A stretch of 64,000 bases of DNA from Verrucomicrobiota bacterium (lineage in GTDB: Bacteria > Verrucomicrobiota > Verrucomicrobiia > Chthoniobacterales > Chthoniobacteraceae), in the NCBI GenBank assembly GCA_003402745.1, contig QQND01000005.1, forward strand, positions 1,357 to 65,356. The letters are read 5' to 3'. The position numbers and the translations under genes are program-made. Below the pieces are notes generated by a model that searched no databases, was not told the DNA's origin, and saw only the letters and a program-made list of their open reading frames with translations. Below, piece after piece: positions 12,988-64,000 of this stretch; the first letter of the stretch is position 1; each line of letters opens with the position of its first letter.

Positions 12988-13074
12988 CCCAGCAACGCGA
13001 GCGGCGCCACGCGCAAGGCTCAGGAATCGAAAACCCTTCCCCCAGGCTCGGGCCCCCAACCCAAGGACCTTTTT

Positions 13075-13375: not shown

Positions 13376-13515
13376 CTGGATGGGATCCTCGGCCCCGGAA
13401 AAGGAAGGTGAGACTTGAGCGAGTGCGCGTGGATATCCAAGGACTCGGATACTGCGGGGCCTAAGGTCGTGAGGAAGGCAGGTTTGCGGTTGACTATGGG
13501 CATCATGCATTTAGG

Positions 13516-32228: not shown

Positions 32229-32330
32229 TCTGCCGCGTATCTTCAGGCGGCGGTAAACAGAAGCTGACGCACCATCGCCTGAGGCGGCTCCGGGCAAGAC
32301 TAGAGGGCACTCTGGCATTGCAAACGTAAA

Positions 32331-33170: not shown

Positions 33171-33248
33171 GCGCTCGAATATCTGCCATTGTTCCACACA
33201 TGGCACGCATGAATTGGACGGCTCTGCGATCCGCGCAGCGATTGGGCA

Positions 33249-38545: not shown

Positions 38546-38550
38546 GGCCG

Positions 38551-41573: not shown

Positions 41574-41773
41574 GACGCCTCTCTACAAAAATGCCGGCCC
41601 GCTTGCCGCAAATGCGTCTCCGCAAGCCGGCGCCCCGCCCGGACGAACACGCCGCGGTCCCCCCGGACGCGACAGGCTCCCATGACGGGACGACGGCTTG
41701 CAGAGACAACGAGCGCGTTTCCCCAGTGCCGACGGATAACTCTTGGTGCTGATTCGATCACAGAAAATGTGTT

Positions 41774-43357: not shown

Positions 43358-43371
43358 TCAATAAGATCCTG

Positions 43372-43575
43372 TTACAGGGGCGTCTTCAAGCCGCACGCCC
43401 GAGCGACGCACCAGCCTTTGAAAGCCTCAAAAAGCATGAACAAGCCGCTCCCACCCAGAGCCACCGCTGCAACCATGTGATCCCGCAAAAAAAACGCTCC
43501 GCCCAGGCAGCACAGCCCGCAAGCACCGCGAACCAAACGGCCGAGACGATCGATGTTTTGCTTGAAGAAACTCAT
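43372..43575 (-). CDS. DUF2892 (YgaP-like) small membrane protein
   Basis: 67 aa with two hydrophobic helices and the terminal 'FKGWCVARACGLKTP' typical of DUF2892. Confidence 0.6.
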   Translation of the reverse strand: MSFFKQNIDRLGRLVRGACGLCCLGGAFFLRDHMVAAVALGGSGLFMLFEAFKGWCVARACGLKTPL

Positions 43576-43637
43576 AAGAGGCGGATGCGTATTTTGAGGG
43601 TGGTCTCTGGGCCGGAAAAGGTCGATACGTTCCCAGT

Positions 43638-43670
43638 CTGCGAAAATTTTGTCAATGTATTGTTTAAGTA
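43638..43670 (-). promoter_or_regulatory. Candidate CarH-type operator: three tandem 11-bp direct repeats overlapping a TTGACA -35-like hexamer
   Basis: The minus strand reads TACTTAAACAA TACATTGACAA AATTTTCGCAG. Repeats 1 and 2 fit nAnnTnnACAn at 5 of 5 fixed positions, and repeat 3 at 4 of 5. TTGACA lies at 43655..43650. Confidence 0.55.
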
Positions 43671-43738
43671 TCTCGAGGAAATGAGTTGATATTGGTTGAT
43701 TTTGTCTATCTTACTGTTCAACTTTACGACAGTCTGAC

Positions 43739-44692
43739 ATGCCCACTTCCGTTTCCATTCAAACCGTTGCCGAACGGACCGGCCTCACGCCCCACGCCAT
43801 CCGAGCCTGGGAGAGGCGCTATGGAGCGATCGAACCGGCCCGCTCAAAAGGCCGCCATCGAATGTATTCGGATTCTGACGTGCGGAGACTGGCACTCCTC
43901 GCTCGCGCAACTCGGGCGGGCAAGTCGATCGGCCGCATCGCACGCTTGGACGACGAAGAATTGAGCGCCATTGTTGCGGAGACTTCGCACAGCACCGCAC
44001 AGTCCTTGAGTGGATGCTTGGATGGAACGCACCGGTTGGCAGAGGCCGCGTTTTTTGAGAATGCGCTGCAGGCGATTCTAGCCCTGGATACGCAGTCGCT
44101 GGACGATACGTTTCAGGCGGCGCAGGTCAAACTGGGGGATCAAGGCTTGCTGAGACGCTTGATCACCCCTTTGGCGAGGGAGGTGGGCGGTCGATGGCGT
44201 ACCGGCCAACTCACCGCGGCTCAAGAGCATTTTTTCACCGCGATGTCCAAGGTGTTTCTGTGGAATCTCACCAGGCAGTACCAACTGGACGCGCATGCCC
44301 CAAAGATCGTGGTGGGAACGCCTGCGGGACAAATCCACGACCTAGGCGCTGTGATTGTGGCTGCTGCAGCCGCAAACAACGGCTGGCGTGTTTCTTACGT
44401 TGGAGCGAGCCTGCCGGCTTTTGAGCTCGCTGGGGCAGTGCAAACGGTTGGTGCCAGGGCAATCGCCCTCAGCATCGTGTACCCCGATGATGACCCAAAA
44501 CTGGAAATAGAACTCTCAAAACTTGGGCGCTTACTCCCCGAGAACGTCCATTTTTATGTCGGTGGCCGGGCCTCGAGTTTTTACCTGCCGGCGCTCAAGC
44601 GTTGTGGAGCCCGCGTACTGGGCTCGCTCGAGGAACTCGACGAAGAATTGGACACAGCTCGAAGAACATCCAATCGCCCCTCACTACCATGA
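43739..44692 (+). CDS. carH: CarH/LitR-type light-responsive regulator (MerR HTH + B12-binding domain)
   Basis: MerR HTH 'IQTVAERTGLTPHAIRAWERRYG'. Wx9EH motif 'WRTGQLTAAQEH' (W codon 44195, EH 44225..44230). B12 lower-ligand context 'GQIHDLGA' (His codon 44336..44338). Confidence 0.85.
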   Translation: MPTSVSIQTVAERTGLTPHAIRAWERRYGAIEPARSKGRHRMYSDSDVRRLALLARATRAGKSIGRIARLDDEELSAIVAETSHSTAQSLSGCLDGTHRLAEAAFFENALQAILALDTQSLDDTFQAAQVKLGDQGLLRRLITPLAREVGGRWRTGQLTAAQEHFFTAMSKVFLWNLTRQYQLDAHAPKIVVGTPAGQIHDLGAVIVAAAAANNGWRVSYVGASLPAFELAGAVQTVGARAIALSIVYPDDDPKLEIELSKLGRLLPENVHFYVGGRASSFYLPALKRCGARVLGSLEELDEELDTARRTSNRPSLP

Positions 44693-52159: not shown

Positions 52160-54460
52160 ATGACAGAGCCCACGACTGCGCCATCCCCAGAAACCCCAGC
52201 CAAGAGCGTAAAACGCCCCGTAAAACGCAAGCCGAAGACGGAGGCAGCGGTGCCTGCACCCCAGGAACCTGTCGTCGCGACTGGGGCCGCTACCGAGGCA
52301 CCCGCCGGCAAAGCCTCCAGCGTGCGTAAGACACGTCCAAAACCCGCCTCCATGGCACAGGACACCGTCTCGACGCCGCTCGCCCCACCCGTGGTCACCG
52401 ATGCACCAAAAAAGCTGGCGACCAAAAAGCCAACCGCGAGAAAAACAGCCTCACCGCCGGAACCAACCGCTCGGATCGCAGAGCCGGTTTACAGTGCCCC
52501 AGAGCCCCCTCCAGAGCCCCCCTCAGAGAGCGGTGCGCCCGCCGGAGCCAAGCCCCGGCGCAAAAAAGCATCTTCTCCCGCCTCAGAGATTCCTTCAGCC
52601 GAACCGGAAAGTATTTTGTTGCCCAACGACGGCTCGTCTGCGCCCGTAAAGCGGGCAAAAACAGTCCCCCGAAAAAAACGGGAGGAAACTGCTGCGCCGT
52701 CCGCGCCTCCAACCCCCGCGCCCGCCTCCTCTGCTCCGGAACCCCTCTCCCGCGAAGATTCCCATGAAACCTGGTCTCCGGGTTCTCGCTCGACGACGGT
52801 TCCAGTAGAATCAGCGCGCAAGCCCTATCCCGTGTATGTACCTCTGCACATCGCCAAACAGATGGAGCAAGAGGGCAAAGCCGCGCCGTTAGCCGTTGCC
52901 GCCGACGCTCATCAGGCCGCAGAAATTCGCGCGGCATCCTACGAGAACCGCCACGGGGGCGGCCACCAACCCCAGTCGCAGGCGACAACCTATCCACGCG
53001 ATGATCAGGGCCGCGGACAACGCCGGGAACGCTCAGGGGAACGCTCAGGGGAACGCTCAGGGGAACGCTCAGGGGAACGCTCAGGGGAACGCTCAGGGGA
53101 ACGCTCAGGGGAACGCTCAGGAGAACGCTCAGGAGAACGCTCAGGAGAACGCTCAGGAGAACGCTCAGGAGAACGCTCAGGAGAACGCGTGCAGGAGAAC
53201 CGCTCGCAGGACCGCCATGAACGTCACGATCGGAAACGGAGCAGGCACGACAGAAGAAGGGACGGGCGCGATGAGCCCCATCAGCCGCATCAAAGGCAGG
53301 GCGATAGCCAGAACCAGCAAGAGCACACCCGTGAACTGCCCCCGCCAACCCTTGAGGAACTTTCTGAAGGAGAAGGAATCATTGAGATTTCGGGCAAGGG
53401 ATTCGGTTTCTTACGCGACCGCGGGCGCAATTTTGCCCAGAGCCCAGCTGACATCTTTGTTTCGCCTGAGATGGTTCGCCGATTCAATCTACGGGACGGC
53501 CAGTGGATCAAGGGAACGGTAAGAAAGAGCGGCAGAGGCCATCAGATGCATGAAATTCAATCGGTCAACGGAGATGCTCCTGAGGCGTCTCGGATGCAGC
53601 CCTCTTTCGACGAGCTGACGGTGATTAATCCGAGCGAGCCGCTCTGGATGGCGACCACTCCCGAGCGTTACACGACGCGGATCATTGATATGGTTTCACC
53701 GATAGGAAAAGGGCAGCGGGGACTCATTGTGGCCCCGCCTCGGACAGGGAAGACGACCTTGCTGCAGCACATTGCAGACGCGATGATGAAGAACCACCCG
53801 GAGGTACAGCTCATCATGTTGCTCGTTGATGAAAGACCGGAGGAAGTCACTGAAATCAGGCACACCGTGCCCAAGGCGGAGATCATGGCCAGTTCAAACG
53901 ACATGGACGTGCGCAGTCACACTCGGATTGCTGAACTTGCCATTGAGCGCGCCAAGCGCCTGGTGGAAGCAGGCAAGGATGTGTTCATCCTACTTGATTC
54001 GATCACCAGACTTGGGCGCGCCTTCAACAATGCGATGACCAACGGCGGACGCACCATGTCTGGCGGGATTGACGCTCGGGCGATGGAAACGCCTCGAAAA
54101 CTGTTTGCAGCCGCGCGGAACACGGAGGAGGCGGGGTCGCTCACCATTATTGCAACCGCGCTGATTGAAACGGGAAGCCGCATGGATGAAATCATCTTTC
54201 AAGAATTCAAGGGCACCGGAAATATGGAGCTCGTACTGGACCGTAAAATTGCTGAACAGCGGATTTACCCTGCCGTGGATATTTTCCAGAGCGGAACGCG
54301 CCGGGAAGAGCTGCTGGTGCCTGCGGACACGCTGCACAAAATCAATTTTTTGCGCAGGGGACTCGCCGGCTGCCGGCCCTCGGACGCAATCGATCGGCTT
54401 CTGTTTTATCTCAAAAAGTTTCAAACCAACGACCAGATGCTCCGCGAAATCCGCGGATAG
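52160..54460 (+). CDS. rho: Transcription termination factor Rho with an N-terminal low-complexity extension of about 400 aa
   Basis: Core from about aa 404: 'GEGIIEISGKGFGFLRD', 'IFVSPEMVRRFNLRDGQWIKG', Walker A 'APPRTGKTTLL', 'LLVDERPEEVTE', 'LLDSITRLGRAFN' and 'EFKGTGNMELVLDRKIAE'. Confidence 0.95.
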   Translation: MTEPTTAPSPETPAKSVKRPVKRKPKTEAAVPAPQEPVVATGAATEAPAGKASSVRKTRPKPASMAQDTVSTPLAPPVVTDAPKKLATKKPTARKTASPPEPTARIAEPVYSAPEPPPEPPSESGAPAGAKPRRKKASSPASEIPSAEPESILLPNDGSSAPVKRAKTVPRKKREETAAPSAPPTPAPASSAPEPLSREDSHETWSPGSRSTTVPVESARKPYPVYVPLHIAKQMEQEGKAAPLAVAADAHQAAEIRAASYENRHGGGHQPQSQATTYPRDDQGRGQRRERSGERSGERSGERSGERSGERSGERSGERSGERSGERSGERSGERSGERSGERVQENRSQDRHERHDRKRSRHDRRRDGRDEPHQPHQRQGDSQNQQEHTRELPPPTLEELSEGEGIIEISGKGFGFLRDRGRNFAQSPADIFVSPEMVRRFNLRDGQWIKGTVRKSGRGHQMHEIQSVNGDAPEASRMQPSFDELTVINPSEPLWMATTPERYTTRIIDMVSPIGKGQRGLIVAPPRTGKTTLLQHIADAMMKNHPEVQLIMLLVDERPEEVTEIRHTVPKAEIMASSNDMDVRSHTRIAELAIERAKRLVEAGKDVFILLDSITRLGRAFNNAMTNGGRTMSGGIDARAMETPRKLFAAARNTEEAGSLTIIATALIETGSRMDEIIFQEFKGTGNMELVLDRKIAEQRIYPAVDIFQSGTRREELLVPADTLHKINFLRRGLAGCRPSDAIDRLLFYLKKFQTNDQMLREIRG
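53027..53182 (+). repeat. 13 perfect 12-bp tandem repeats encoding (E-R-S-G)13 inside rho
   Basis: GAACGCTCAGGG x7 followed by GAACGCTCAGGA x6. A degenerate 14th unit (GAACGCGTGCAG) follows at 53183. Confidence 0.95.
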
Positions 54461-54516: not shown

Positions 54517-55242
54517 TCAGCGCGTCGACCGCGCCGAAAAGGCGGCGTCTCTCCTTGCTTGTAGAAGAGCCTCCCAGTTTTTGTCCTCCAATTTAAAATT
54601 CTCCCCGAGGATCAGCCGGAGATTGTCGAGTGCGAACGGGCCCAACGGATGCAGAGGCACGCCCGCCAGCTGCCTCAGGCTGGGGAGTGAGACCTCATCC
54701 GGACGCTCCATCAAGTCAGCGAACAGCACGCTCAAGACGCGGCCGTGTGCTTGCGGGTTGAGGAGAAAAGGCAACGCCACATCTCTCCACGCCTTGTCAG
54801 GCAGGCGTTTCAAGGCTTGCTCTGCGGCAGGCTCCAGTGCCTCTTCGGGCAGATAGCCCAGCAGCCCAAAAACAGCCTTTGCCGCCGCCGTGTCATCGAC
54901 GGCCCGGGCCACGGCCTGCTTTATCTGCAACTCCCAGGGCAGCGGTCCCCTGGAGAACTGCAGCAGGGACGCGACATTGGGGGCTGCAGGGGGGCTTGTC
55001 CCGCCTGCCACGGCAATCGGAAAATGTCCTGCGAGGAGCGCCTCGTCGGAAACGTCCTTCGGCGCAATATCCGGCGCAGCCTGCGTTGGAATCGCCCCCC
55101 CCGTAATCGATGGTGCCTCCATTGGGGTTCGCAGCGGCCCGTCGCCCGACGAAGCCTTCGGGGCAACAGCACTGAGCGACCAAAACAACAGGCAGCCCGC
55201 CAAAGATATCAGGGCGATTCGAGCTGACACGGAAAGCTTCAT
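54517..55242 (-). CDS. Lipoprotein of unknown function
   Basis: 'MKLSVSARIALISLAGCLLF' contains the lipobox LAGC. The remainder is Ala/Pro/Leu-rich with no known motif. Confidence 0.55.
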   Translation of the reverse strand: MKLSVSARIALISLAGCLLFWSLSAVAPKASSGDGPLRTPMEAPSITGGAIPTQAAPDIAPKDVSDEALLAGHFPIAVAGGTSPPAAPNVASLLQFSRGPLPWELQIKQAVARAVDDTAAAKAVFGLLGYLPEEALEPAAEQALKRLPDKAWRDVALPFLLNPQAHGRVLSVLFADLMERPDEVSLPSLRQLAGVPLHPLGPFALDNLRLILGENFKLEDKNWEALLQARRDAAFSARSTR

Positions 55243-55360: not shown

Positions 55361-57454
55361 CTACTTCGCATCCATCTTCCAGACACCTCTCCAATCCGGA
55401 GGTGGGTTGAGCGCCAGTTGTTGACAACGTTCCCCGAGCGTTTGGCTCGCACCGTCAGAGTACGTCCGATGCAACCCTTCAAAGGCCGCTTGCGCCTCGG
55501 CAAAGTGTCCCTCGGAATACAGGGCATATGCGGCGGTATAGGCCTCGCACAACTGGGCATAGTTAGGAGGCGTGCAGGGATTTTCGCATTCCAATAATTC
55601 GATCGGCTCTGTCTTTCCTTTCACAATGGCCCTGTCCACCAGACGGTGGATCCCGGGATTGGTGAACTGCGAAAAAGTGTCCCGTGAAACGAGCAAGCGC
55701 ACCCCGTAGTACTTGGTCAGCGATTCGATGCGCGAGGCGGCGTTCACACTGTCTCCCACCAACCCGTAGTCCAACCGCTTTGCGGAACCCTTGTTGCCGA
55801 CGAGCACCCGCCCGCTGTGAAGCGCCACGCCGTACCCGAAGATCTCGAGAATCTCCTTTGAAAAGGAGGCCCGCAACGCTTCCATAGCTGTTATCAGTGC
55901 ATAAGCCGCCCGCAAGGCCCGGTCGGCCGCGTCCGGTTGGGGCTTCGGGGCCCCCCAATAGCTCAGGAACTGATCCCCCAGAAAGTGCTCAAGGTTTCCC
56001 TGCTCCTTCATGATGGCATTCGTCTGCGCCTCGAAGACTTTATTGAGCAGGTCAAACATCCCCTGCGGACCGAGGATCTCCGCCAGGGGCGTGGAATTTC
56101 GCAGGTCCGTGAGCAGGAGCGTCACGTCCGCGTGTTTGGGCTGCATCGAACCGGGATCCGCAAGAACCGCCTCCAGAACCGTGGGCGAAAAATAGAGCCC
56201 CATCGTGTGCTTGAGTTTCACGCGGTCGATCCGTTCCCGAAAAAAGTCATAAAAAAGGATGAGCACACCTCCCCCCATCAACGCGAAAAGGGGCGCCGCC
56301 ACAGGGACCATCCAGCCCAACTTGTCGTAACACCACTGCGCCAGCACCCAGTAGCTAGCGACACTCATGACAACGGTGCCCAGCCTCTGCATAGGCTGGA
56401 AGTTGTGGAAAGAGAGCGCCCCCGCGAGCATCCCCGACATGAGAATAATGAGCACCACAACCGCTTTGGGGGGTTCCCACAGAAACTGTTTTTGAAGCGC
56501 CGCCGCAAGGATGTTCAGATGCACCTCGGGGCCGTTCATCTGGCGCTGGGTGAAAGGGGTGTCGTGTTCGTCGTGGAAAATCCCAGCCGTCGGACCGATC
56601 AGCACGATTTTATCCCGAAAAAAGGACCCGTTTTCGTAGTTTTTTTCCCAGACTTGGGGAATCAGTACGTCGCCGATGGGATGTATTTTATAGCCCATTC
56701 CAGGCTCGCTGCCATACCGGAAGCGGGTTAGATCAAACGTGGGGGGTATCGTATCTGGCCTTCCAAATTTTTGCAGCACCCGGGAGGCGAGGGACTCCAT
56801 CACGGCGGTCTCCTCCACCACAAAACCCGCCTGCGCTCCCGTTTGGCGAAACCGGGTGCGTCTGACCACTCCGTCGGGGTCCTTGGGAATGTTCACGTAG
56901 GCGACCCTGTCGTCCTGCACGAGCGCCTCGTTGTCGGCAGCGGGCAGCACCACAGAGTTCGGGGAGATGAGGTGCAGGAAATCACCACGGTCGGCCTTCT
57001 GCGTGCTCAGCGTGCAGCCGATGACTACCTTGTCCTTGTGCTTGGCTAAGGCCTCCGCCAAGCGCGCGTCTCCCATGTTCGGCGAGCCAAACACCAAATC
57101 GAAAGCGATCACCTTCGCGCCGGCCCCGACAAGTTTGTCCGTGAGCTCCGCCCAAACTGCGCGCGACCACGGGAAATCTTTCTGCAACTCCCTTAAGATA
57201 GGAGCGCCCTCCAAATCCTCGTCCTTGAAATCACTAGCCGGATAGTTGGGTCGGTCAATCCCGATGAGTACCAGCTCAGGAGAGACCAGGGTTTTCCTTC
57301 CCAACCGGGTGCGGACATCCCCGGTAAAAACTTCCAAATCCCGCAAAGGAGCATAGGAAATGCCCTCAATCAAACCAGAGAGCAAAAGCGCCAGAATCGA
57401 ACATCCTAGGCAGATGCCGATGAAAGCTTGGCGGCGGTCGATTTCGTGACTCAT
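55361..57454 (-). CDS. CHASE2 sensor domain + class III adenylate/guanylate cyclase, with a short helical C-terminal tail
   Basis: The N-terminal TM and CHASE2-like periplasmic region is followed by 3 TM helices. Cyclase blocks 'VTLLLTDLRNST', 'FLGDQFLSYWGAP' and 'GLVGDSVNAASRIES'. Confidence 0.85.
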   Translation of the reverse strand: MSHEIDRRQAFIGICLGCSILALLLSGLIEGISYAPLRDLEVFTGDVRTRLGRKTLVSPELVLIGIDRPNYPASDFKDEDLEGAPILRELQKDFPWSRAVWAELTDKLVGAGAKVIAFDLVFGSPNMGDARLAEALAKHKDKVVIGCTLSTQKADRGDFLHLISPNSVVLPAADNEALVQDDRVAYVNIPKDPDGVVRRTRFRQTGAQAGFVVEETAVMESLASRVLQKFGRPDTIPPTFDLTRFRYGSEPGMGYKIHPIGDVLIPQVWEKNYENGSFFRDKIVLIGPTAGIFHDEHDTPFTQRQMNGPEVHLNILAAALQKQFLWEPPKAVVVLIILMSGMLAGALSFHNFQPMQRLGTVVMSVASYWVLAQWCYDKLGWMVPVAAPLFALMGGGVLILFYDFFRERIDRVKLKHTMGLYFSPTVLEAVLADPGSMQPKHADVTLLLTDLRNSTPLAEILGPQGMFDLLNKVFEAQTNAIMKEQGNLEHFLGDQFLSYWGAPKPQPDAADRALRAAYALITAMEALRASFSKEILEIFGYGVALHSGRVLVGNKGSAKRLDYGLVGDSVNAASRIESLTKYYGVRLLVSRDTFSQFTNPGIHRLVDRAIVKGKTEPIELLECENPCTPPNYAQLCEAYTAAYALYSEGHFAEAQAAFEGLHRTYSDGASQTLGERCQQLALNPPPDWRGVWKMDAK

Positions 57455-57541
57455 GGCAATAAACTTAAGGAACTCCGGCGCCGGCGCCGTAAGCCGTCTC
57501 CCGGGATCTCCGACTTCGTCCCCGGGATTGGAGAGAAGGTT

Positions 57542-58537
57542 TTAAAATTGTATCCTCAGGGACATGCCCAACCCAGTATCCACCTTCTGGTAGTCTTCAA
57601 TAGTGACGTCGCTGGAATCACGCGCCTCGAAATTCGCAAAGGTGCGTAGACTGAGGTCGTTGGTCAGGGCATAAGCAAGGACCAGTCCCACCGAATGAAT
57701 GACGTCCTTGCGCTGGTGATTGCGCGTGTACTGGGTCAACTGCGCCCGGTAAAACGGTTGGAAAACCAACCCCTGCAAAAGTTCCCGTGTGTAACTGATC
57801 GTGGCCGATTCATCCACCCGGTCATAGTGGTCCGTATACGGGGCGTCCACATGCGAGATGTGCCCGCCGACACCGAGACTTGCCGAGAACGCCGACTTCT
57901 TACCCAGTGCAAAGGACCTTTGAAGGCTCACGTTGGGGGCGAATTCGCTATAGAACTCTTCGTAGGTGCCTCCCTCAGCGCTCAGCAACCGGTTGTGATC
58001 GAGCCCCACCATGGCCACCCATTTTTCGTGAAACAGGTACCGCCACTGCATGAAAAAAGAACTCACGTCAAAATCGGAGTCATTGATGAAACTTTCGTTT
58101 CCCCCAGTTGCAATCCCGTAGTTGAACTTTTGGTGGCGGTACCCAAGCTTTGTGGACAACTCGCCTCCAGGAACCTGCCAGGCGGGGGGCGTCAAGGCGG
58201 CTTGCACCGTCGAAATCATCAGGGACGTTTCAATTTTTTCACCCTCGTACTGAGTCGCGTTTGAGGTGGACCCAAACTGGACGTCCGTGGAGGCCTCCAA
58301 CCAAGAATGGCGGGCCTTCTGGCGGATGAGCACCTGCGGGCCGACATCCTTGTCTTCGTCCTCATACAGGGAGGAAATCGCTTCGGGTGCGGGCGTTTGC
58401 AAGCGGGGGATCAAGTTCAAACGCTCGACCTGCTGGGCGGCGGAATCAATGCGGTTTTGAGCGAAACTGATTCCCGAGAGTGCGCCAAGGGCAGCGAGCG
58501 CCAGGGCGGGACCGCGGAGGGGAAAGAATGACTTCAT
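57542..58537 (-). CDS. Outer-membrane beta-barrel protein
   Basis: Signal peptide 'LALAALGALSGISFA'. Alternating amphipathic strands. The C-terminus ends in '...GLGMSLRIQF' (terminal Phe). Confidence 0.65.
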   Translation of the reverse strand: MKSFFPLRGPALALAALGALSGISFAQNRIDSAAQQVERLNLIPRLQTPAPEAISSLYEDEDKDVGPQVLIRQKARHSWLEASTDVQFGSTSNATQYEGEKIETSLMISTVQAALTPPAWQVPGGELSTKLGYRHQKFNYGIATGGNESFINDSDFDVSSFFMQWRYLFHEKWVAMVGLDHNRLLSAEGGTYEEFYSEFAPNVSLQRSFALGKKSAFSASLGVGGHISHVDAPYTDHYDRVDESATISYTRELLQGLVFQPFYRAQLTQYTRNHQRKDVIHSVGLVLAYALTNDLSLRTFANFEARDSSDVTIEDYQKVDTGLGMSLRIQF

Positions 58538-58553
58538 GAAAATACGCCCTCGG

Positions 58554-60608
58554 CTAAGGAGTTCTCTGCTGGACGCTCATGTTGGTAATTCGAGAGCCGT
58601 CGGACCGTTGAATATCATTCGTCGTAGAGGTGCTCTTGATCAGATCGCCTCCATATTTCACTCCACTGATGAAGTTAACCTGAAAAGGCCTCGAACGCTG
58701 GTTTGTGTTTGGCAAAGCTGCGAGCACTCCGTCTCTGGAGGCCAACCGAACCGTGGATCCGTCCTGAAAGTCGACGTTTGTCAGGTTGATCGTTCTCGCA
58801 TCCAGGGAAATGCTGGCCGCATTCAACTTCGTCGCAGGCACAGTGCTGGCGATGTTGATGTCCCCGCCGGCCACCATTTTCAAAGTGGAATTCGGAGCCG
58901 TGAACTCCCTCGCCCAAGCTTCATTAATGAAAATATTAGTAATGGCGCTCATCAAAACATTGCCCCTCGCGTAAACGCTCGTGTCTGCGGCGGTTATGGA
59001 GCTTCCTGCGATTTCAACCGAACCGGAACGGTTAAACACAACGGTCTTTGTGAGCTCTATCGTCGGAGACACGGAGGCGTCTGCGAGGCCAAGAACAAAG
59101 GCCTCGGATTTTATATTTAAGAGCGTTTTGTTCACCGTCACGGATCTGCCCTGGATCAAGAGCAGCTTTTCTGTCGCTACAGGTCCCTGAGCACCGGCGA
59201 GTTCAGAGGTGAGTTGTGTCAGACTGGGCCCACCCGGCTCGGAAAGGCTCATTGGCGTGGGGCCGCTCAGATTCAGGGCGGCGTCCGTTCTTGCATCGTC
59301 CAAGAGAACCGTTCCGGTGGCTGCGATGATTTTCAAGTCGATGCGCAGATCGGGGAACAGAAACTCCGCGATACTTCCACCACCGGTGAAGTGCTCTAGC
59401 AGAGGAGGCAGCGACTCACCCGGCAGCAAGGGTGTGGTTGGCGGAAGGGCGGGATCCAGTCCCCTTACCTCCAGGTTGTTTGCGAGCAGCAACCGCGCGG
59501 ATTTGTCCCCGTAATTCAGTTTCAGTTTGCTGTAACTTGACTCGCCAAAGACGGAGGCGAGGGACTGCGGCACGCTGGACCCTGGGGACAACTTAAGGCG
59601 GCTCAATAACTCGTTAAAACTCAGAGGGGTTTTCCCGGAACCAAACAGGCTCGACCCAGGCTCTTTCCCATGCTGGCCCAACACCCCCACATTCTGACCC
59701 AGGGCAAAACTGATGGCGGCGTCCATTGCAATGTCGATATTGATCCCCTTCACAGCTTCACTAGGACGCAGCACATCCGCCCTGCGCAGCGGCGGCGACT
59801 CGTTGCCCTCCTCCATCAGGTGTTCGCCCCGCACCCTGAGGCGGGTGGGTTCCGCCCGGCCGTCAGCAATCATTCGCTCTTGCTTCTCCACCGAGGCCAG
59901 CACCTTGCCTTCGGAGGCCACCGGAGCGCGAAATCCCTTCAGCAAACTAGAACCTGCCACCTGGTCTTTCAGACGGAAGTTGAGCACCGGTCCAAATTCC
60001 GCTTTCCCCGGGGAGACCACGGTTAACTGGCCCGCCGTGACGGCGATGGAATCACCGTTAGAGAGCGTGGCCTTGGCCTTGCCCTCGAGAACCAGCAGCT
60101 TGAATCCTCCGCTGGTAGTTGCTGTGACGATGAGCGTGGTTCCCATCACGGCCGCCTGAGCGCCCTCGGAGGAAATCACGCCCCCGCCCTTCCCCGTAGG
60201 TGAATGGAAAAGCAGACTGCCTTTCTGAAGCTTGACCTCTCTTTTGTCCGCCGCAAAGGAGAACACCGTGTTGGCACCGACGCGAGTCACGGTGCCGTCG
60301 GGGGCGATGAGTTCCGCCCTAGAATTTGCCCCAGTGGAGACCTGATCCGGCACTTTGAAAGCTTCGTTAACTACCGCCGGCCGTGAACGCTGGGTAGTGG
60401 CGTCAATCACCATCACCTTATCCACGACCTCGCTGAACTTGAGCGCGTTAAAATTCCCAGGCGCCGCACCAAAAGCCGGGGAGCCCAAAACGGGAAGAGC
60501 AAGCAACGCCGCGGTGATCTGACGCCGGTGAGTGGCGAGAGGGGCGATAAAAGAGAAGATCATAACGGCGAGAAAGGTTGAGCGGGTGGCGGGGCGAGCA
60601 CCAATCAT
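58554..60608 (-). CDS. FecR-domain secreted protein with a long beta-rich C-terminal region
   Basis: FecR-like 'STGANSRAELIAPDGTVTRVGANTVFSF...KLQKGSLLFHSP...AAVMGTTLIVT...LLVLEGKAKA'. Confidence 0.7.
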   Translation of the reverse strand: MIGARPATRSTFLAVMIFSFIAPLATHRRQITAALLALPVLGSPAFGAAPGNFNALKFSEVVDKVMVIDATTQRSRPAVVNEAFKVPDQVSTGANSRAELIAPDGTVTRVGANTVFSFAADKREVKLQKGSLLFHSPTGKGGGVISSEGAQAAVMGTTLIVTATTSGGFKLLVLEGKAKATLSNGDSIAVTAGQLTVVSPGKAEFGPVLNFRLKDQVAGSSLLKGFRAPVASEGKVLASVEKQERMIADGRAEPTRLRVRGEHLMEEGNESPPLRRADVLRPSEAVKGINIDIAMDAAISFALGQNVGVLGQHGKEPGSSLFGSGKTPLSFNELLSRLKLSPGSSVPQSLASVFGESSYSKLKLNYGDKSARLLLANNLEVRGLDPALPPTTPLLPGESLPPLLEHFTGGGSIAEFLFPDLRIDLKIIAATGTVLLDDARTDAALNLSGPTPMSLSEPGGPSLTQLTSELAGAQGPVATEKLLLIQGRSVTVNKTLLNIKSEAFVLGLADASVSPTIELTKTVVFNRSGSVEIAGSSITAADTSVYARGNVLMSAITNIFINEAWAREFTAPNSTLKMVAGGDINIASTVPATKLNAASISLDARTINLTNVDFQDGSTVRLASRDGVLAALPNTNQRSRPFQVNFISGVKYGGDLIKSTSTTNDIQRSDGSRITNMSVQQRTP

Positions 60609-60649
60609 TCGGCAGCAGGCCCTAGTGAGTCAGTCGACTCAGGAGAAAT

Positions 60650-63163
60650 TCATTTTCTATTCGAATCCGAATTGCCGGAGAGAACCAACTGCAGGAGTTC
60701 ATCCCCAGTATAACGATCGGCGGCATCGTGCGGGCAGGCGGAGACGCAACGCGGTTCGGGGATGTCTTTTTCCCCCTCCGCATCGCAAAGGTCGCAAGCC
60801 ACGGCCTTCGGTTGGGCCAAGCGCAGGGTCTGGCCGGGCTGAGCCGAAACCTGCTGTACCAGCGCATTTTCATTGGGCACCATAAAGATGCTGCCGTAAG
60901 GGCAATTGTTGGCGCAGAGACCGCAGCCGATGCAGTGGTCTTCAATGACGATCTGCAGATGTTTGCCCCTGTGAATGGAGTCAACGGGGCAGCCCACCAT
61001 GCAGTGGGCTTCCACGCACGAGCGACAGGAGGTCGCCACCATGAAGTTGCCCAACCGCATGCCATCTCGAAGTAGGCGAGTCACAGGCACTCCATGGGAA
61101 TGGGTGCCGTGTTGCTCCACGCAGCCTTTGGTGCATTCGTCGCAGCGGATGCAAAGGTCCATGTTCAGGGCCAGAATACTGCGCCCCTCGTAGAGCCCTT
61201 GGCCCACGTAATTGTCGAGGATCGGATCCGAATGGTTATCCCCCTTCAAGAAGTTCAGGGAACGCACAATCAGGTTGCGGCGCAACGTGGGAAAGGCGCG
61301 CAGCATGGGTAAGAAGTCCTCGCGGCTCAGCCGAGCCACCTCCAATTGTCCGAGCGCCGAGCAACTCGCCGAGCGAACTCCCTTGGGGAGTACTTTGGCG
61401 AGGTCGACCGCGTCCTGATTGAGGACCTCCACCAAGGAACGCTCCACTTCCTCCGCGCTCCGGTCGGCGTCGCCCGCGTCCAAGCCAAGCATGCCGATTT
61501 CGCCAATCAGCCCGCCCGGCCCGCGTGAAACCACCCTAGACTCCTGCTCGTAGCGGCGAATCCCGATGCGCGTATACCCCAAACGTACGATGTAAAGACA
61601 GTCTGCGGGATCCCCCTGATTGAAGAGCACCTGGCCGGGGTTAATCTTTAAAAAACGAATGCGCGGGCGCATGTAATCGATGAGCCGCGCGTATTCCTCC
61701 TTGGGAATCCCCTCGAAGATGCTCAGGGACTGCAACGCGAGGTTGAGCGAACGCTCCCGGTAGGCGGATTCAAACTTCTGGCGCTGGCTGGGCAGGCGCA
61801 TCAGACGATCCAGGACATTTCGGCGGATCTCCCAAACCTCGCCGTCCTCAAGAACCTTGAGGTCCGCGCTTCTGGGCGAACCACTCAGACAGGACATTTC
61901 GCCCACAATCACATCGGCGGGAGTGACCTCGACCTCAAAGACCACCTCCTTGCTCGACTTCGCCATCCAGGCGCTGAAAAAGCCCTTCTTGTCAGGCGCC
62001 GTAGGCTTGTAAACCGTGGTTTGATAACGGCCCGAGCGCAGGATAAAAGCCGTGTTCCCGGGTTCGCCCTGATGCACCAGAAGACTACCCGCGCTCACTT
62101 TGCGCCGCAGGACCAGTCCCTCCTGCCACAGCAAAAACTTGGGCGGCACTCCTGCAAACAAGGGGTCCTTAAGAAGTTCTGCAGCGGAAATTTTCTCCAC
62201 CGTCCCCTGCCTAGGCACCGCCTTCACCGAGGCAACCGGATTAAAGGTGATGGCGCTGGTAGGGCAAGAAATCATGCATTCCCCACACTGCACGCAGCCG
62301 CTTTCACCCATGGGTTCGTCCAGGTCAAACCCGATGGAAGCGTGGGCGCCCTTGCCAGTGCGGCCGATGATATTGTTGCCCTTCACCTCGTTGCAGGCGC
62401 GCACGCAGCGGTCGCAAAGCACGCAGGCGCTGTGATCGGTCACAAACACGGGCGACGAAGTATCAACACGCTGCCTGTGGGCAATGGCCTCCGGTTGGAG
62501 CGGTGCGAAAACTTCGCTTTTAAGGCGCGAAGGGTCGGCGCCACAGCGCGACAACAGACGGCCCAGTTCGTTGAAAGGGGCCAGCTCCTTGTCCAGTTCT
62601 GCACGGGGCGCAGGTTTGAGGTGGTCGACCGCCAGCAACTCGGTGAGCGTCTTGACAGATTTCCGCACCCGTTCACCGTCGGGACCGGCGTCCTGCATGG
62701 TGAAAACCTCCATCCCCTCCTTGACCTGGTGCTGACAGGCAGGAAGCAACTTCCGTTCGGCCGCGCGTTTGCCGCGCTTCTGCCCATAAATTTGAACCAC
62801 ACAAAGCCTGCATACCGCCACAGGCTTCATGTGCGCCTGATGGCACAACACGGGGATCGGTATTTTAACCTCGTCGCCCGGTTGTTTGACGTAAAGTTTG
62901 GTGGCTGCATCGTAAATGGTGGTGTAGCGGGGCGTGGTGCGGCCCTCCAGATCGAGGATGATGTTCCCATTGGCATCCTGAGAAGGCTCCGCCATCGGCA
63001 CCGTCACGCTCTGGCCGTCAATCTGCAAGGTGATGTTCCTGCCGTAATCCCGCTCCACAGGGGCGTCCAAACGCACCAACTGCCCGTTGATATCACGGCT
63101 GAAGAGGCCTTCGTCTTCGTCTTCGCGGGCCAGGGTCGCGGGAAAGTCGGTTGTCGGTAACAT
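60650..63163 (-). CDS. Fe-S protein: NuoG-N-terminal-like 2Fe-2S/4Fe-4S + two cNMP-binding (CAP-effector) domains + DmsB-like poly-4Fe-4S domain
   Basis: 'ITLQIDGQSV...VLCHQ...CRLCVV...LLPACQ'. 'HSACVLCDRCVRAC'. 'CVQCGECMISCP'. cNMP phosphate-binding cassettes 'GEMSCLSGSPRSADL' and 'GEIGML...VRSASCSA'. C-terminal 'CIRCDECTKGC', 'CRSCVEAHCMVGCP', 'CIGCGLCANNCP' and 'CDLCDA...CVSACP'. Confidence 0.8.
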   Translation of the reverse strand: MLPTTDFPATLAREDEDEGLFSRDINGQLVRLDAPVERDYGRNITLQIDGQSVTVPMAEPSQDANGNIILDLEGRTTPRYTTIYDAATKLYVKQPGDEVKIPIPVLCHQAHMKPVAVCRLCVVQIYGQKRGKRAAERKLLPACQHQVKEGMEVFTMQDAGPDGERVRKSVKTLTELLAVDHLKPAPRAELDKELAPFNELGRLLSRCGADPSRLKSEVFAPLQPEAIAHRQRVDTSSPVFVTDHSACVLCDRCVRACNEVKGNNIIGRTGKGAHASIGFDLDEPMGESGCVQCGECMISCPTSAITFNPVASVKAVPRQGTVEKISAAELLKDPLFAGVPPKFLLWQEGLVLRRKVSAGSLLVHQGEPGNTAFILRSGRYQTTVYKPTAPDKKGFFSAWMAKSSKEVVFEVEVTPADVIVGEMSCLSGSPRSADLKVLEDGEVWEIRRNVLDRLMRLPSQRQKFESAYRERSLNLALQSLSIFEGIPKEEYARLIDYMRPRIRFLKINPGQVLFNQGDPADCLYIVRLGYTRIGIRRYEQESRVVSRGPGGLIGEIGMLGLDAGDADRSAEEVERSLVEVLNQDAVDLAKVLPKGVRSASCSALGQLEVARLSREDFLPMLRAFPTLRRNLIVRSLNFLKGDNHSDPILDNYVGQGLYEGRSILALNMDLCIRCDECTKGCVEQHGTHSHGVPVTRLLRDGMRLGNFMVATSCRSCVEAHCMVGCPVDSIHRGKHLQIVIEDHCIGCGLCANNCPYGSIFMVPNENALVQQVSAQPGQTLRLAQPKAVACDLCDAEGEKDIPEPRCVSACPHDAADRYTGDELLQLVLSGNSDSNRK

Positions 63164-63175
63164 GAAAAAGGCCTC

Positions 63176-64000
63176 CTAGGATTGGGGTTGCGGTTTTGCC
63201 ACAGGAGCAGTGAGGTGTTTGGCGACGTCCTCTGGGAAGAAATTCACGAGCGAGCGCAAGGGCGCGGGCACCGACCGGCCAAGGCCGCATATGGAGGAGA
63301 GTTCGATCGCGCCCAGGAGATCCTTCATCAGAGGCAGCAACTCTTCCTTCCAGGTCGTGGCGTCTATCTTCCCGGCGTACAGGCTGTCCGCAAGCGAAGT
63401 CATTTTCTGGGACCCCAACCGGCAAGGCACACATTTGCCGCAGGATTCGTTCCGATAGAACTCCATCGAATAGAGCGTCTGCTCGGCCATGTCGCGCCCT
63501 TCCGCGTAGACCACAAGCCCGGCCCCCAGCGCCTGCGTCGGGCTTAGAGCGCGGAAAAGGTTCAGCTCCAGCTCGAGATCCAGAATGTCGATCTCGAGGC
63601 TGGCAGGGTCGACCCCACGGCGGGCGGCGAGGGCAATCCACGCCTTGTTGTTCACGTGGTCACGAGGTAAACCGGCCCCCGCTTTGAGTTTGGCAGGAAG
63701 GAACCCGCCAGAGGGACCGGAGGGTGCAAACGCCTTCATCGGCAAATCCCCGACGATCCCCCCACAATAGCTCTCGCCGTAGATGAGCTCGCGCAAAGTC
63801 ATCCCCATCGGAACCTCGTAGACCCCCGGCTTTTTCACATCCCCAGAAATGGAGAAGAAACGCCGCCCCTTCCATCCGTTGACCCCGAGCCCGGCATACG
63901 TGGCCCCTCCTTTGGCAAAAATGTAGGGCATCCAACCGTAGGTCTCCACGTTGCTGACGATGGTCGGAAGGTCCTGCAGTCCGTTCGTCTCTAGCTTCGG
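63176..64000 (-). CDS. NuoF-like (51-kDa NADH dehydrogenase flavoprotein-type) subunit, 5' end beyond window
   Basis: The frame stays open to base 64000 ('...VSNVETYGWMPYIF'). SLBB-like 'GDVKKPGVYEVPMGMTLRELI'. 4Fe-4S motif 'ESCGKCVPCRLG'. Confidence 0.8.
   Translation of the reverse strand, partial: PKLETNGLQDLPTIVSNVETYGWMPYIFAKGGATYAGLGVNGWKGRRFFSISGDVKKPGVYEVPMGMTLRELIYGESYCGGIVGDLPMKAFAPSGPSGGFLPAKLKAGAGLPRDHVNNKAWIALAARRGVDPASLEIDILDLELELNLFRALSPTQALGAGLVVYAEGRDMAEQTLYSMEFYRNESCGKCVPCRLGSQKMTSLADSLYAGKIDATTWKEELLPLMKDLLGAIELSSICGLGRSVPAPLRSLVNFFPEDVAKHLTAPVAKPQPQS

Follow-up and report, generated by a model that had tools for sequence, protein, structure and literature searches.

Five genes at the end of the window

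The window, a stretch of 64,000 nucleotides from a member of the Chthoniobacteraceae (Verrucomicrobiota), closes with five minus-strand genes, encoding in this order a NuoE-NuoF fusion (F), an Fe-S/cNMP protein (G), a FecR-domain protein (H), a β-barrel (I), and a CHASE2 cyclase (J). The gaps given in the first-pass annotation (12, 41, 16, and 87 bp) were obtained again when recomputed from the open reading frames, and the array is a real observation, with the corrections that the NuoF-like gene is incomplete, the barrel is a weak call, and the start of the FecR gene is ambiguous. The 41-bp gap between G and H hinges on the ATG chosen for the FecR gene; the later start called in a 97%-identical relative (locus L081) widens it to 90 bp. 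Promoter-like or terminator-like sites are absent from the four gaps, which is compatible with a single transcript but falls short of showing one.

The first gene (63176..64000, minus strand) runs off the window end and encodes the C-terminal 274 codons of a NuoE-NuoF fusion flavoprotein, an NADH/FMN input module. Its earlier label, NuoF-like, agrees with the NADH_4Fe-4S (7.9e-21) and SLBB (1.3e-08) matches in Pfam, but the gene is cut by the window end and its full form is a fusion: the fragment is 97% identical to residues 411-684 of the L081 protein (684 aa), which carries 2Fe-2S_thioredx, Complex1_51K, SLBB, and NADH_4Fe-4S domains. Against NCBIfam nuoF_fam the fragment scores 131.7 bits, under the cut-off of 558.65.

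G (60650..63163, minus strand; 837 aa) is a cytoplasmic protein and the conserved partner of the NuoEF gene. It contains motifs for one [2Fe-2S] and six [4Fe-4S] clusters and, mid-protein, a tandem pair of cNMP-binding domains (Pfam: cNMP_binding, 8.5e-28, in two stretches; Fer2_4; several Fer4 families). Hydropathy indicates no transmembrane segment in the 97%-identical L081 version, and no signal peptide is evident on reading the window sequence. There are more than 890 homologues, of which the best 120 listed align along their whole length at 60% identity or more; databases call them no more than "cyclic nucleotide-binding domain-containing protein" or "Fe-S-cluster-containing hydrogenase component 2". 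Among the homologues compared, every Fe-S cysteine is invariant. The AlphaFold model of G (pLDDT 51.8) is too poor to show geometry.

The HoxU/NuoG-like N-terminal module of G (residues ~97-310; 62234..62875, minus strand) holds one [2Fe-2S] and two [4Fe-4S] motifs (C107, C118, C121, C143; C247, C250, C253, C257; C290, C293, C296, C300). It matches Fer2_4, Fer4_Nqo3, and Fer4_8 in Pfam and the N-terminal domains of formate dehydrogenase, hydrogenase, and NuoG in the PDB, while its HoxU match reaches 100.6 bits against a cut-off of 333. The His-ligated cluster of NuoG and HydA is absent from this module. The first cNMP-binding domain (residues ~335-465; 61769..62161, minus strand; best Pfam stretch 354-456) has an intact phosphate-binding cassette, GEMSCLSGSPRSA, that aligns with the cassette of PKA RI-alpha, GELALIYGTPRAA. 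Its G421, E422, and R431 are invariant across 22 homologues, and the canonical pattern, Gly-Glu...Pro-Arg-(Ser/Thr/Ala)-Ala, is also retained in the FNR-type G' proteins. The cassette of the second domain (residues ~480-645; 61229..61726, minus strand) is interrupted by a conserved insert of ~35 residues (GEIGML...[35]...GVRSASCSAL); since the domain has degenerated in G', it is uncertain whether it can bind a ligand. The C-terminal part (residues ~660-830; 60674..61186, minus strand) is a HydN/HycB-like polyferredoxin (NCBIfam HydN, 1.2e-14; PDB matches HycB3 and HycB4) with four [4Fe-4S] motifs (C671/674/677/681, C713/716/721/725, C744/747/750/754, and C790/793/806/810), and G' keeps 16 of these 16 cysteines.

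H (58554..60608, minus strand; 684 aa) is a secreted FecR-domain protein (Pfam FecR, 2.7e-12) with a signal peptide, the FecR domain at residues 88-178, and then ~500 residues without a family match; its one hydrophobic segment is N-terminal. Neither an anti-sigma N-domain nor an ECF sigma gene was seen with H in the loci annotated. I (57542..58537, minus strand; 331 aa) is a probable outer-membrane β-barrel. The earlier barrel call fits a signal peptide and a C-terminal ...SLRIQF, both found by reading, but the family matches are sub-threshold (BBP2_2, 19.2 bits, 6e-4, cut-off 23.7; EpsL, 18.6 bits, 7.5e-4, cut-off 275). Homologues of I with 27-34% identity lie beside a FecR gene and a cyclase in most metagenome contigs, and the one in L166 also matches BBP2_2 faintly.

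J (55361..57454, minus strand; 697 aa) is a class III nucleotide cyclase (Pfam CHASE2, 1.1e-37; Guanylate_cyc, 2.8e-13) composed of a transmembrane segment, a periplasmic CHASE2 domain (57364-56426), two transmembrane helices, the cyclase domain (56137-55610), and a C-terminal tail of ~80 residues. Both metal-binding Asp residues and the catalytic Asn and Arg are retained. Among solved structures, the catalytic domain is closest to that of Cya2, a guanylyl cyclase regulated by CHASE2 (PDB ID: 2W01, 5.3e-21). E-H-F-L-G-D had been read correctly at the specificity site: the His aligns with Glu488 of Cya2 and with the Lys of its E488K adenylyl variant (PDB ID: 6FHT; PMC5995499). The resulting His/Gly pair, kept in 74 of 80 homologues, justifies the caution expressed over ATP or GTP specificity. 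Cyclases of a second type (N) are canonical Lys/Thr adenylyl cyclases.

The larger cluster and its recurrence

The array had been called a self-contained module; it is instead the tail of a larger cluster that continues beyond position 64000. In L081 it makes up the 3' end of a run of seven co-directional genes, the first of which encode a membrane protein bearing two HX13H pairs (D) and a decahaem cytochrome c. D, E, and C lie outside the window and are assigned to the source genome through this 97%-identical relative. The four invariant His residues of D form HX13H pairs on TM3 and TM5, its TM2-TM3 loop is positively charged, and it has a cytoplasmic domain of ~120 residues. D is probably a dihaem b membrane protein; it has no match in Pfam, PDB sequences, or Foldseek, so its haem binding is read from the motif itself. 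E is a decahaem cytochrome c (10 CXXCH motifs) with an N-terminal anchor, C is a c554-like cytochrome with a signal peptide, three CXXCH motifs, and one CX3-4CH, and M is a decahaem LVIVD propeller (10 CXXCH). The larger cluster is undescribed and looks built for NAD(P)H electron transfer across the inner membrane to multihaem cytochromes. The putative dihaem b protein and the cytochromes c give the proposed electron flow a destination.

With the cyclase and the Fe-S protein as queries, the linkage recurs in both directions, although the locus counts are not phylogenetically independent. The NuoEF partner adjoins G in 68 of 68 loci. Among the 32 species whose loci have at least 7 kb on both sides, at least two of C, D, and E occur within 7-10 kb of G in 22, in three arrangements, and a cyclase is within reach of G in 10, with none nearby in the other 22. 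The cyclase-linked loci belong to at least three separate clades and show at least three arrangements: co-directional G-H-I-J; G convergent with a cyclase-153-aa ORF-FecR/TPR/TonB-barrel-FecR/TPR series; and a cyclase inserted between C and D. The linkage is missing at L050 and L007, the outgroups closest to the clade of the window. With the Fe-S protein as anchor, it is facultative.

The view from the cyclase is different. Of the 25 metagenome contigs that extend at least 7 kb upstream, 18 carry a cNMP-binding polyferredoxin, 19 carry D or E, and 23 carry FecR-domain genes; in this set an FNR-like flavoprotein stands in place of NuoEF. Redox genes, regarded earlier as an unusual addition, are therefore usual neighbours in the J subfamily, whereas the remark that FecR proteins are frequent neighbours of CHASE2 sensors holds well; such a pairing is also known in Burkholderia (PMC5192318). 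L093, L098, L145, and L166 add further cyclase-redox layouts, and in a Luteolibacter cluster an ABC exporter with its own cNMP-binding domain directly follows the cyclase. In other lineages the NuoEF protein and the NuoG-like N-terminus are swapped for FAD_binding_6, NAD_binding_1, and Fer2 domains, while the cNMP-binding polyferredoxin, D, E, and the cyclase module are all kept; by its domain content, this FNR-like input module is a non-orthologous displacement.

These counts bear on whether the genes are simply independent neighbours, the FecR-barrel-cyclase genes being a general envelope operon that feeds a cell-wide pool (e.g., for CRP-type regulators), the Fe-S protein reading that global pool or no nucleotide, and adjacency reflecting shared genomic history. 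Such independence is unlikely, though it deserves more weight than any other alternative. It agrees with the facultative linkage (10 of 32 species) and with an unlinked second cyclase of the J subfamily in the MAG of a close relative (that of L001), at an unrelated locus (L165). Cyclic nucleotides diffuse, so a dedicated linkage is not required, and the genes occur in co-directional, convergent, and divergent orientations, which means that co-transcription is not a conserved feature. It fits poorly with a cNMP-binding polyferredoxin within 10 kb of the cyclase in 18 of 25 contigs, for which our own estimate of chance, assuming that a genome of several Mb holds one target gene or two, is well below 1%, and with a linkage that outlasts many rearrangements and the swap of the NAD(P)H module. 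In addition, the remaining 55 kb of the window contain no other J- or N-like cyclase.

Proposed path of signal and electrons

From sequence and gene order, that is, from directly observed domain content, cofactor motifs, arrangement, and recurrence, the best reading (probability about 55%) is that an envelope signal acts through a cyclic nucleotide to gate NAD(P)H-driven electron export. The five genes would lie downstream in a conserved verrucomicrobial system that has a redox arm and a sensor arm. In the redox arm, a cytoplasmic NAD(P)H dehydrogenase, made up of the NuoE-NuoF fusion and the HoxU/NuoG-like N-terminus of G or, elsewhere, of an FNR-like FAD/NAD/[2Fe-2S] protein, would pass electrons to the four-cluster polyferredoxin of G. 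The polyferredoxin would dock on D, a small inner-membrane protein with two putative stacked b haems, from which electrons would reach the membrane-anchored periplasmic E, then C, and often M. The net effect would be NAD(P)H-driven export over the inner membrane that bypasses the quinone pool. In the sensor arm, the outer-membrane barrel and the periplasmic FecR-domain protein may relay an envelope or surface cue to CHASE2, and the cued cyclase would make a cyclic nucleotide. This would bind the tandem domains at the exact junction of dehydrogenase and polyferredoxin and switch electron transfer across it, so that costly export would take place only when the external cue is present. A path from envelope signal to cNMP to electron flow had been proposed in the first-pass annotation, and the recurrent linkage favors it; what does not stand is its self-contained nature, and from the Fe-S side the linkage is facultative.

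Electrons might also flow inwards, with the periplasmic multihaem cytochromes oxidizing an external donor (Fe(II), reduced humics, or an electrode-like mineral) and D and G conveying electrons to NAD(P)+. NuoEF-type modules are reversible in principle, and components similar to the multihaem, LVIVD, and NHL proteins have been discussed in connection with electron uptake by Tenderiales (bioRxiv 10.1101/2022.05.06.490989). Transfer to the potential of NAD+ would nevertheless be uphill in redox terms and against the membrane potential, and the cluster encodes no coupling device, be it a proton or sodium pump or a bifurcating partner. The alternative input module is of the FNR type, typical of NAD(P)H-oxidizing reductases, and inward flow is accordingly quite improbable.

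Equally doubtful is that the cNMP-like domains of G do not gate at all and instead recognize some other ligand, act as a structural spacer, or form a redox-plus-nucleotide sensor that signals elsewhere. Some proteins have CRP/FNR-superfamily effector domains whose ligand is haem, an Fe-S cluster, or an organic molecule, and the second domain, split in G and degenerate in G', would suit such a role. Against it, the first domain retains the PKA-aligned cassette with its invariant Arg, the recurrent neighbor is a cyclase, and the Fe-S clusters are the sole output of G, in which Pfam finds no other output domain. That F and G are HoxF/HoxU-like diaphorase subunits of a hydrogenase or formate dehydrogenase, as the name "hydrogenase component 2" and the best N-terminal matches (HoxU, [FeFe]-hydrogenase, and formate dehydrogenase N-domains in NCBIfam and the PDB) might suggest, is very improbable, since all such matches fall far under family cut-offs, G has no catalytic domain, the recurrent neighbors are cytochromes, and no hydrogenase or molybdopterin gene occurs in the annotated 10-kb flanks of L081, L083, and L166 or among the ten L095 cluster ORFs scanned.

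Relation to known systems

The proposed envelope-gated export combines features of several characterized systems. In Sinorhizobium meliloti, the NsrA barrel is required for a signal to reach the CHASE2 cyclases CyaD1, CyaD2, and CyaK and, through them, the cAMP receptor Clr (PMC13001267; Garnerone et al. 2018 cited therein). Both systems comprise an outer-membrane β-barrel (a probable one here), a CHASE2 class III cyclase, and a cNMP-binding protein as receptor. The receptor there is a CRP-type transcription factor; in the system proposed here, an Fe-S protein for electron transfer takes its place, the sensor constantly includes a FecR-domain protein as third component, and the cyclase has the His/Gly pair. 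Synechocystis Cya2 shares the CHASE2-TM-cyclase architecture and the Gly at the second specificity position but has Glu488 at the first (Lys in the adenylyl variant), where the J subfamily has His. Cya2 is not known to be linked to redox genes. Burkholderia and Pseudomonas operons likewise place a periplasmic FecR protein directly beside a CHASE2 sensor, but their output is a histidine kinase with a response regulator, the FecR protein carries LysM, and barrel, cyclase, and redox genes are lacking (PMC5192318).

With the NADH-input modules of complex I, soluble hydrogenases, and formate dehydrogenases (NuoE, NuoF, the NuoG N-terminus, and HoxF/HoxU), the input module shares the [2Fe-2S] thioredoxin-like domain, the FMN/NADH site, the N3-type [4Fe-4S] cluster, and the NuoG-type [2Fe-2S] plus two [4Fe-4S] clusters. 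It differs in missing all family cut-offs, in the fusion of NuoE with NuoF, in the loss of the His-ligated cluster, in the appended cNMP-binding tandem and four-cluster polyferredoxin, and in having cytochromes as partners instead of complex I subunits or a catalytic subunit. Hmc, Tmc, and DsrMKJOP, transmembrane redox complexes of sulfate reducers, also join a cytoplasmic Fe-S protein, a membrane cytochrome b, and a periplasmic multihaem cytochrome c, while NOX pairs an NAD(P)H module of the FNR type with two His pairs, placed on TM3 and TM5. Common to them is a logic in which a cytoplasmic redox module is followed by membrane-spanning helices with bis-His haem b and by an acceptor at the outer side. 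The proposed system would in function resemble a split NADPH oxidase/ferric reductase, or Hmc/Tmc run outwards. Compared with all of these, D has no sequence or fold similarity to solved proteins, the components are separate polypeptides, and the cytoplasmic partner is NAD(P)H-linked and carries the cNMP-binding tandem; we know of no report of nucleotide gating in Hmc, Tmc, DsrMKJOP, or NOX/FRE.

In the PDB and NCBIfam, the middle of G best matches PKA regulatory subunits, the mycobacterial acetyltransferase Pat, and Bdellovibrio Bd1971, in which a single or tandem cNMP-binding domain is likewise fused to, or docks on, an effector; here, the effector is an Fe-S cluster chain. A literature search found no described case of cNMP-binding domains controlling such a chain. 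If the proposed gating is true, an electron-transport chain may here be under the direct control of a second messenger.

The five-gene array and its surroundings

The array consists of five minus-strand open reading frames: the CHASE2 cyclase J (55361-57454), the probable outer-membrane beta-barrel I (57542-58537, 331 aa), the FecR-domain protein H (58554-60608), the 837-aa Fe-S/cNMP protein G (60650-63163), and the NuoF-like F, whose frame is open from 63176 to the window end. The intergenic gaps described by the first-pass annotation (87 bp for J-I, 16 bp for I-H, 41 bp for H-G, and 12 bp for G-F) are borne out by the reading frames, and the stated domains by Pfam. No consensus promoter or terminator was found in the four gaps, and a hairpin 3' of the cyclase stop is on par with shuffled sequence (z = +1.28), which supports no terminator. 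The DNA comes from a Chthoniobacteraceae bacterium; among genomes, CANJZW010000017.1 is the best match, at 97% identity.

After an unassigned 241-aa gene at 54517-55242, the 3' boundary of the array is marked by a convergent gene (52160-54460, plus strand) for a Rho termination factor extended at its N-terminus by ~400 residues, and the region of the extension has an AT skew of ~0.25. The minus strand encodes a complete oxygenase domain of a bacterial nitric-oxide synthase (PF02898, E 7.7e-142) at 31146-32318, between genes for a short-chain dehydrogenase and a PLP-dependent decarboxylase (32331-33206 and 29563-31017, both minus); no reductase partner was seen. The region 34606-44692 holds a light-response or carotenoid-like block, with a DPRP cryptochrome/photolyase-related protein, a GT2 glycosyltransferase, an acyltransferase, two CrtI-like amine oxidases, and an aldehyde dehydrogenase on the minus strand and a divergent CarH/LitR-like regulator (MerR plus B12-binding, 43739-44692). 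Two long plus-strand genes encode a 2186-aa ORF (1894-8454) and a 1205-aa Ser/Thr kinase-WD40 protein (13516-17133), which is 34% identical to an FHA-kinase near the cluster in L081, a 97%-identical relative.

The cyclase J matches CHASE2 (Pfam, 1.1e-37; PF05226, 130.5 bits against a cut-off of 26.3, residues 31-343) and Guanylate_cyc (2.8e-13). Its hydrophobic segments span residues 8-34, 329-352, and 379-405, transmembrane helices flanking CHASE2. The segments LLLTDLRNST, FLGDQF, and GDSVNAASRIE align with the matching residues of Cya2 and OaPAC, and the alignment retains two metal-binding Asp residues, the transition-state Asn, and the Arg of class III enzymes; J is a class III nucleotidyl cyclase with the full predicted set of catalytic residues. 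The closest solved relative is Cya2 (PDB ID: 2W01), a CHASE2-regulated guanylyl cyclase with Glu488 at the first specificity position, for which PDB ID: 6FHT represents the E488K adenylyl variant (PMC5995499). The corresponding residue of J is His, and the second position is occupied by Gly, as in Cya2. This combination rules out the adenylyl cyclase pair (Lys with Asp or Thr) and departs from the guanylyl cyclase pair (Glu with Cys or Gly) at the first position. As the His/Gly pair matches neither canonical pair in full, specificity for ATP or GTP is not assignable from sequence, which agrees with the first-pass annotation. Since the pair is kept in 74 of 80 J homologues (50-100% identity), it is read as the mark of a cyclase subfamily and not as a local oddity. 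Second-type cyclases (N) at other loci carry Lys/Thr, the canonical adenylyl residues.

H contains a FecR domain (2.7e-12; PF04773, 47.4 bits against a cut-off of 24) and a signal peptide that looks cleavable. A FecIR anti-sigma system is ruled out by the absence of an N-terminal anti-sigma domain from H and of a sigma gene nearby, no sigma-factor families appearing in the gene lists of the comparison loci L081, L083, and L166. The barrel identity of I is the weakest assignment of the array: a signal peptide and a C-terminal Phe, both read by eye from the sequence, suggest it, whereas the BBP2_2 (19.2 against 23.7) and EpsL (18.6 against 275) scores fall below their cut-offs. A porin-cytochrome conduit of the MtrCAB type, defined by a porin of at least 20 strands encoded with the periplasmic multihaem cytochrome that it sheathes, was rejected for I, which has only 331 residues and is accompanied by a FecR gene and a cyclase, not by cytochromes. 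The verrucomicrobial porin-multihaem cluster (PMC5615132) comprises a different gene set.

Redox proteins of the cluster

The Pfam matches of G comprise two stretches of cNMP_binding (8.5e-28), Fer2_4, and many Fer4 families. Among the 22 homologues from which residue conservation was read, the ligands of an N-terminal [2Fe-2S] cluster of the NuoG/HoxU type (C107, C118, C121, and C143) and of two ferredoxin-type [4Fe-4S] clusters (C247...C257 and C290...C300) are invariant, and the HydN/HycB-like C-terminus holds four [4Fe-4S] clusters (C671...C810). Between C143 and C247 there is no HX3CX2CX5C motif of a His-ligated cluster; this, with a HoxU score of 100.6 against a cut-off of 333, excludes G from the HoxU/NuoG N-terminal modules. 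All similarities of G to named Fe-S families lie far under the curated cut-offs, and its PDB matches are limited to formate dehydrogenase, hydrogenase, and NuoG N-domains and HycB-type ferredoxins. The AlphaFold2 model (mean pLDDT 51.8) is confident for the cNMP-binding domains only and was not used for geometry or fold search.

The cNMP-binding tandem of G aligns with CNB-A and CNB-B of PKA RI-alpha. In domain 1 (PF00027, 96.6 bits against a cut-off of 27.5), the phosphate-binding cassette GEMSCLSGSPRSA aligns with the PKA RI-alpha cassette GELALIYGTPRAA, and its residues G421, E422, and R431 are invariant. Domain 1 is therefore predicted to be a cNMP-binding receptor domain of the CAP/PKA type, with the cassette G-E...R-(S/T/A)-A. 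The residue following the cassette Arg showed no co-variation with cyclase type (His/Gly versus Lys/Thr), Ser, Thr, and Ala occurring in both contexts. In domain 2, a conserved insert of ~35 residues splits the cassette.

The window copy of F contains NADH_4Fe-4S (7.9e-21) and SLBB domains, consistent with the NuoF-like gene first described, but it is cut at the window end; the full-length protein in L081 is a 684-aa NuoE-NuoF fusion with the domains expected of both. Membership in complex I is not supported, with a nuoF_fam score of 131.7 bits against a cut-off of 558.65 (for the partial window copy), and no genes for nuo membrane subunits occur in the annotated flanks of L081, L083, and L166. 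A diaphorase of a hydrogenase or formate dehydrogenase was dismissed for F-G, as no catalytic partner lies in the flanks. The Fe-S front end formed by G and F thus shares its domain types with complex I and HoxFU, but misses every family threshold and the catalytic partner.

The gene set continues past the window end. In L081, D and E precede the F gene in the same direction, with junctions of a 4-bp gap and a 4-bp overlap, and a c554-like cytochrome with a signal peptide (C) lies divergently upstream. E (507 aa) contains 10 CXXCH motifs and an N-terminal anchor. D (302 aa; L081 5501-6409, outside the window) matches no Pfam family; it has four or five TM helices, with HX13H motifs on TM3 (H98 and H112) and TM5 (H275 and H289), a strongly basic TM2-TM3 loop, and a helical domain of ~120 residues between TM4 and TM5. 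The four His residues are invariant in both cluster types, down to 22% identity, and the helices bearing them appear in the predicted model. With the basic loop placed inside, TM3 and TM5 would run parallel and bring the His pairs to matching depths, the layout expected from the motif for two stacked b haems. A profile search against PDB sequences gave no match to D with E < 0.5, and a Foldseek search of its model against the PDB gave nothing at E <= 0.001 (TM-scores ~0.3). Membership in the NOX/FRE, NarI, or cytochrome b families is not supported: the bis-His pairs fit, but neither search gave a match in sequence or fold, and the fold stays unassigned.

A further protein, M, with LVIVD repeats and 10 CXXCH motifs, is often encoded near the cluster. 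This decahaem beta-propeller protein of ~1,280 aa occurs in many cluster loci (e.g., L095 13379-17221 and L083 436-4281), often with an NHL-repeat protein (L095 12117-13382), and may act as terminal reductase or as a surface component. The window has no gene for M, and 52160-54460 there encodes rho.

In metagenome contigs anchored on the cyclase, NuoEF is missing and the gene order is C (divergent), F', G', D, E, the barrel with one or two FecR genes (divergent), the cyclase, an NHL-repeat protein, and M. Here F' is an FNR-like protein of 435 aa (FAD_binding_6, NAD_binding_1, and Fer2 by Pfam), and G' (574 aa) has cNMP-binding domains, the second of which is degenerate, followed by a four-cluster polyferredoxin as in G. 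The two proteins are 24% identical over 550 residues, and G' keeps 16 of the 16 polyferredoxin Cys residues. Two unrelated front ends, both predicted to oxidise NAD(P)H, appear to feed a common core of cNMP-binding polyferredoxin, D, and E, and in both versions the cNMP-binding tandem is placed exactly between front end and polyferredoxin. This exchange around a constant tandem provides the strongest argument of the analysis: the conserved function would be NAD(P)H-linked transfer of electrons to haem proteins in the membrane and periplasm, with the nucleotide acting at the junction of front end and polyferredoxin.

Linkage of cyclase and redox genes

Gene neighbourhoods were compared with both proteins as queries. 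Among 80 species-level genome loci with a G homologue, the NuoEF gene adjoins the G gene in all 68 with enough sequence. A subset of 32 loci has 7 kb or more to either side; 22 of them carry two or more of C, D, and E, and 10 carry a class III cyclase. On the tree of G, the loci with a cyclase form several distinct groups of differing layout: the window clade has co-directional G-H-I-J; a large clade carries, directly after G, a convergent module of a CHASE2 cyclase of the second type (only 27% identical to J), a 153-aa ORF, a FecR-TPR-TonB-type-barrel fusion, and a FecR-TPR protein; a Udaeobacter-like pair has this same module inserted between C and D; and there are two singletons. Conversely, a metagenome scan with the cyclase alignment found J-type cyclases of 50-70% identity on 80 contigs; among the 25 with at least 7 kb upstream, FecR is found in 23, D or E in 19, and a cNMP-binding Fe-S gene in 18. 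The genes are arranged in several layouts in this set, too.

By the authors' estimate, the chance of finding one or two target genes within 10 kb in a genome of several Mb is well under 1%. The linkage counts are phylogenetically non-independent, but the variety of arrangements argues for a linkage retained by selection. The two nearest outgroups of the window clade (L050 and L007) have no cyclase within 5-10 kb, and J-subfamily paralogs exist outside the cluster: the MAG of L001 encodes one, 65% identical to J, at a locus unrelated to the cluster. This unlinked gene (L165 10001-12037, CANJZW010000001.1) adjoins one for a 2588-aa PATR-repeat protein, with no redox gene near.

The linkage noted in the first-pass annotation thus recurs from both directions. 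Its description of the redox genes as an unusual addition does not hold: they are the rule for the J cyclase subfamily, and the cyclase is optional for the Fe-S protein. Nor is the module self-contained, as the unit is larger and reaches past the window end to D, E, and C, as seen in L081.

Two loci show further variation. In Luteolibacter sp. (L166, JBDSJS010000024.1), the CHASE2 cyclase gene comes immediately after E, and that of an ABC exporter bearing a cNMP-binding domain comes next (12163-14394; ABC_membrane, ABC_tran, and cNMP_binding); this exporter is a candidate second cNMP effector within the cluster. Another set of FecR, barrel, and CHASE2 cyclase genes is found 8 kb beyond. In L019, a non-CHASE2 cyclase (2718-4313) is encoded on the strand of the Fe-S gene, 1.1 kb downstream of it; the region preceding its catalytic domain looks HAMP-like by eye, its specificity positions are Gln/Thr, and GN replaces GD before the catalytic Asn.

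Proposed control of electron export

Beyond the established domain content, cofactor motifs, gene order, and recurrence, a functional scheme can be inferred from sequence and gene order. F (or F') would oxidise NAD(P)H, and electrons would pass through the Fe-S clusters of G to the two predicted haems of D; the decahaem E would receive them next and hand them to C and M in the periplasm. A surface or periplasmic cue might reach CHASE2 by way of the barrel and the FecR-domain protein, upon which J would produce a cyclic nucleotide. In PKA R subunits, cAMP re-orients the tandem cNMP-binding domains; likewise, the nucleotide bound at domain 1 of G might re-orient the tandem, connecting or disconnecting the two Fe-S modules.

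Outward electron flow is favoured, because it is downhill in redox terms and along the membrane potential. Inward flow to NAD+ is less favoured, as it would run uphill in redox terms and against the membrane potential, and no coupling device for it is encoded in the cluster. With outward flow, a valve on export would make sense, because export draws on both the membrane potential and reducing power. Ferric chelates or humic quinones are attractive guesses for the terminal acceptor, given the FecR and TonB-barrel components and the NOX/FRE-like logic.

The sensor arm resembles NsrA - CyaD1/D2/K - Clr of Sinorhizobium meliloti (PMC13001267) and the Burkholderia operons that pair FecR with a CHASE2 kinase (PMC5192318). 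The redox arm resembles Hmc/Tmc-type transmembrane complexes or a split NADPH oxidase in logic, but neither sequence nor fold supports membership. In the literature on cNMP-binding and Fe-S proteins, CHASE2, multihaem, and verrucomicrobial systems, neither this cluster nor an Fe-S protein with cNMP-binding domains was found described.

The outline of the original interpretation, in which an envelope signal acts through a cNMP on electron flow, stands together with its genomic test; the size of the unit, the scope of the linkage, and the path of electrons, now across the membrane to multihaem cytochromes, need change. In its full form, the proposal is that a second messenger, possibly a non-canonical cNMP made by the His/Gly CHASE2 cyclase in response to an outer-membrane/FecR signal, binds the PKA-like tandem in an Fe-S wire and opens NAD(P)H-driven export via a hitherto unrecognised dihaem-b protein to multihaem cytochromes. 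This reading is tentative, with a probability of roughly 0.3.

Bacterial cyclic-nucleotide effectors are known mainly as transcription factors, kinase-like and acetyltransferase enzymes, and channels. The cluster may represent cNMP signalling with a new effector class and, if so, an Fe-S electron-transfer protein would constitute that class; the chance is also real that a new regulatory principle is at work here, with an envelope sensor exerting fast allosteric control over electron export. It defines three uncharacterised families: the cNMP-binding polyferredoxins (more than 890 clusters), the 300-aa HX13H membrane proteins (more than 1,300 clusters, all named 'hypothetical'), and the His/Gly CHASE2 cyclase subfamily (~600 clusters). 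Soils, peat, and lakes harbour abundant Chthoniobacterales (including Candidatus Udaeobacter) and Luteolibacter, whose capacities for electron transfer to humics or metals are poorly understood. If the proposal is true, a post-translational valve on respiration-like electron flow would be widespread in soil and freshwater Verrucomicrobiota.
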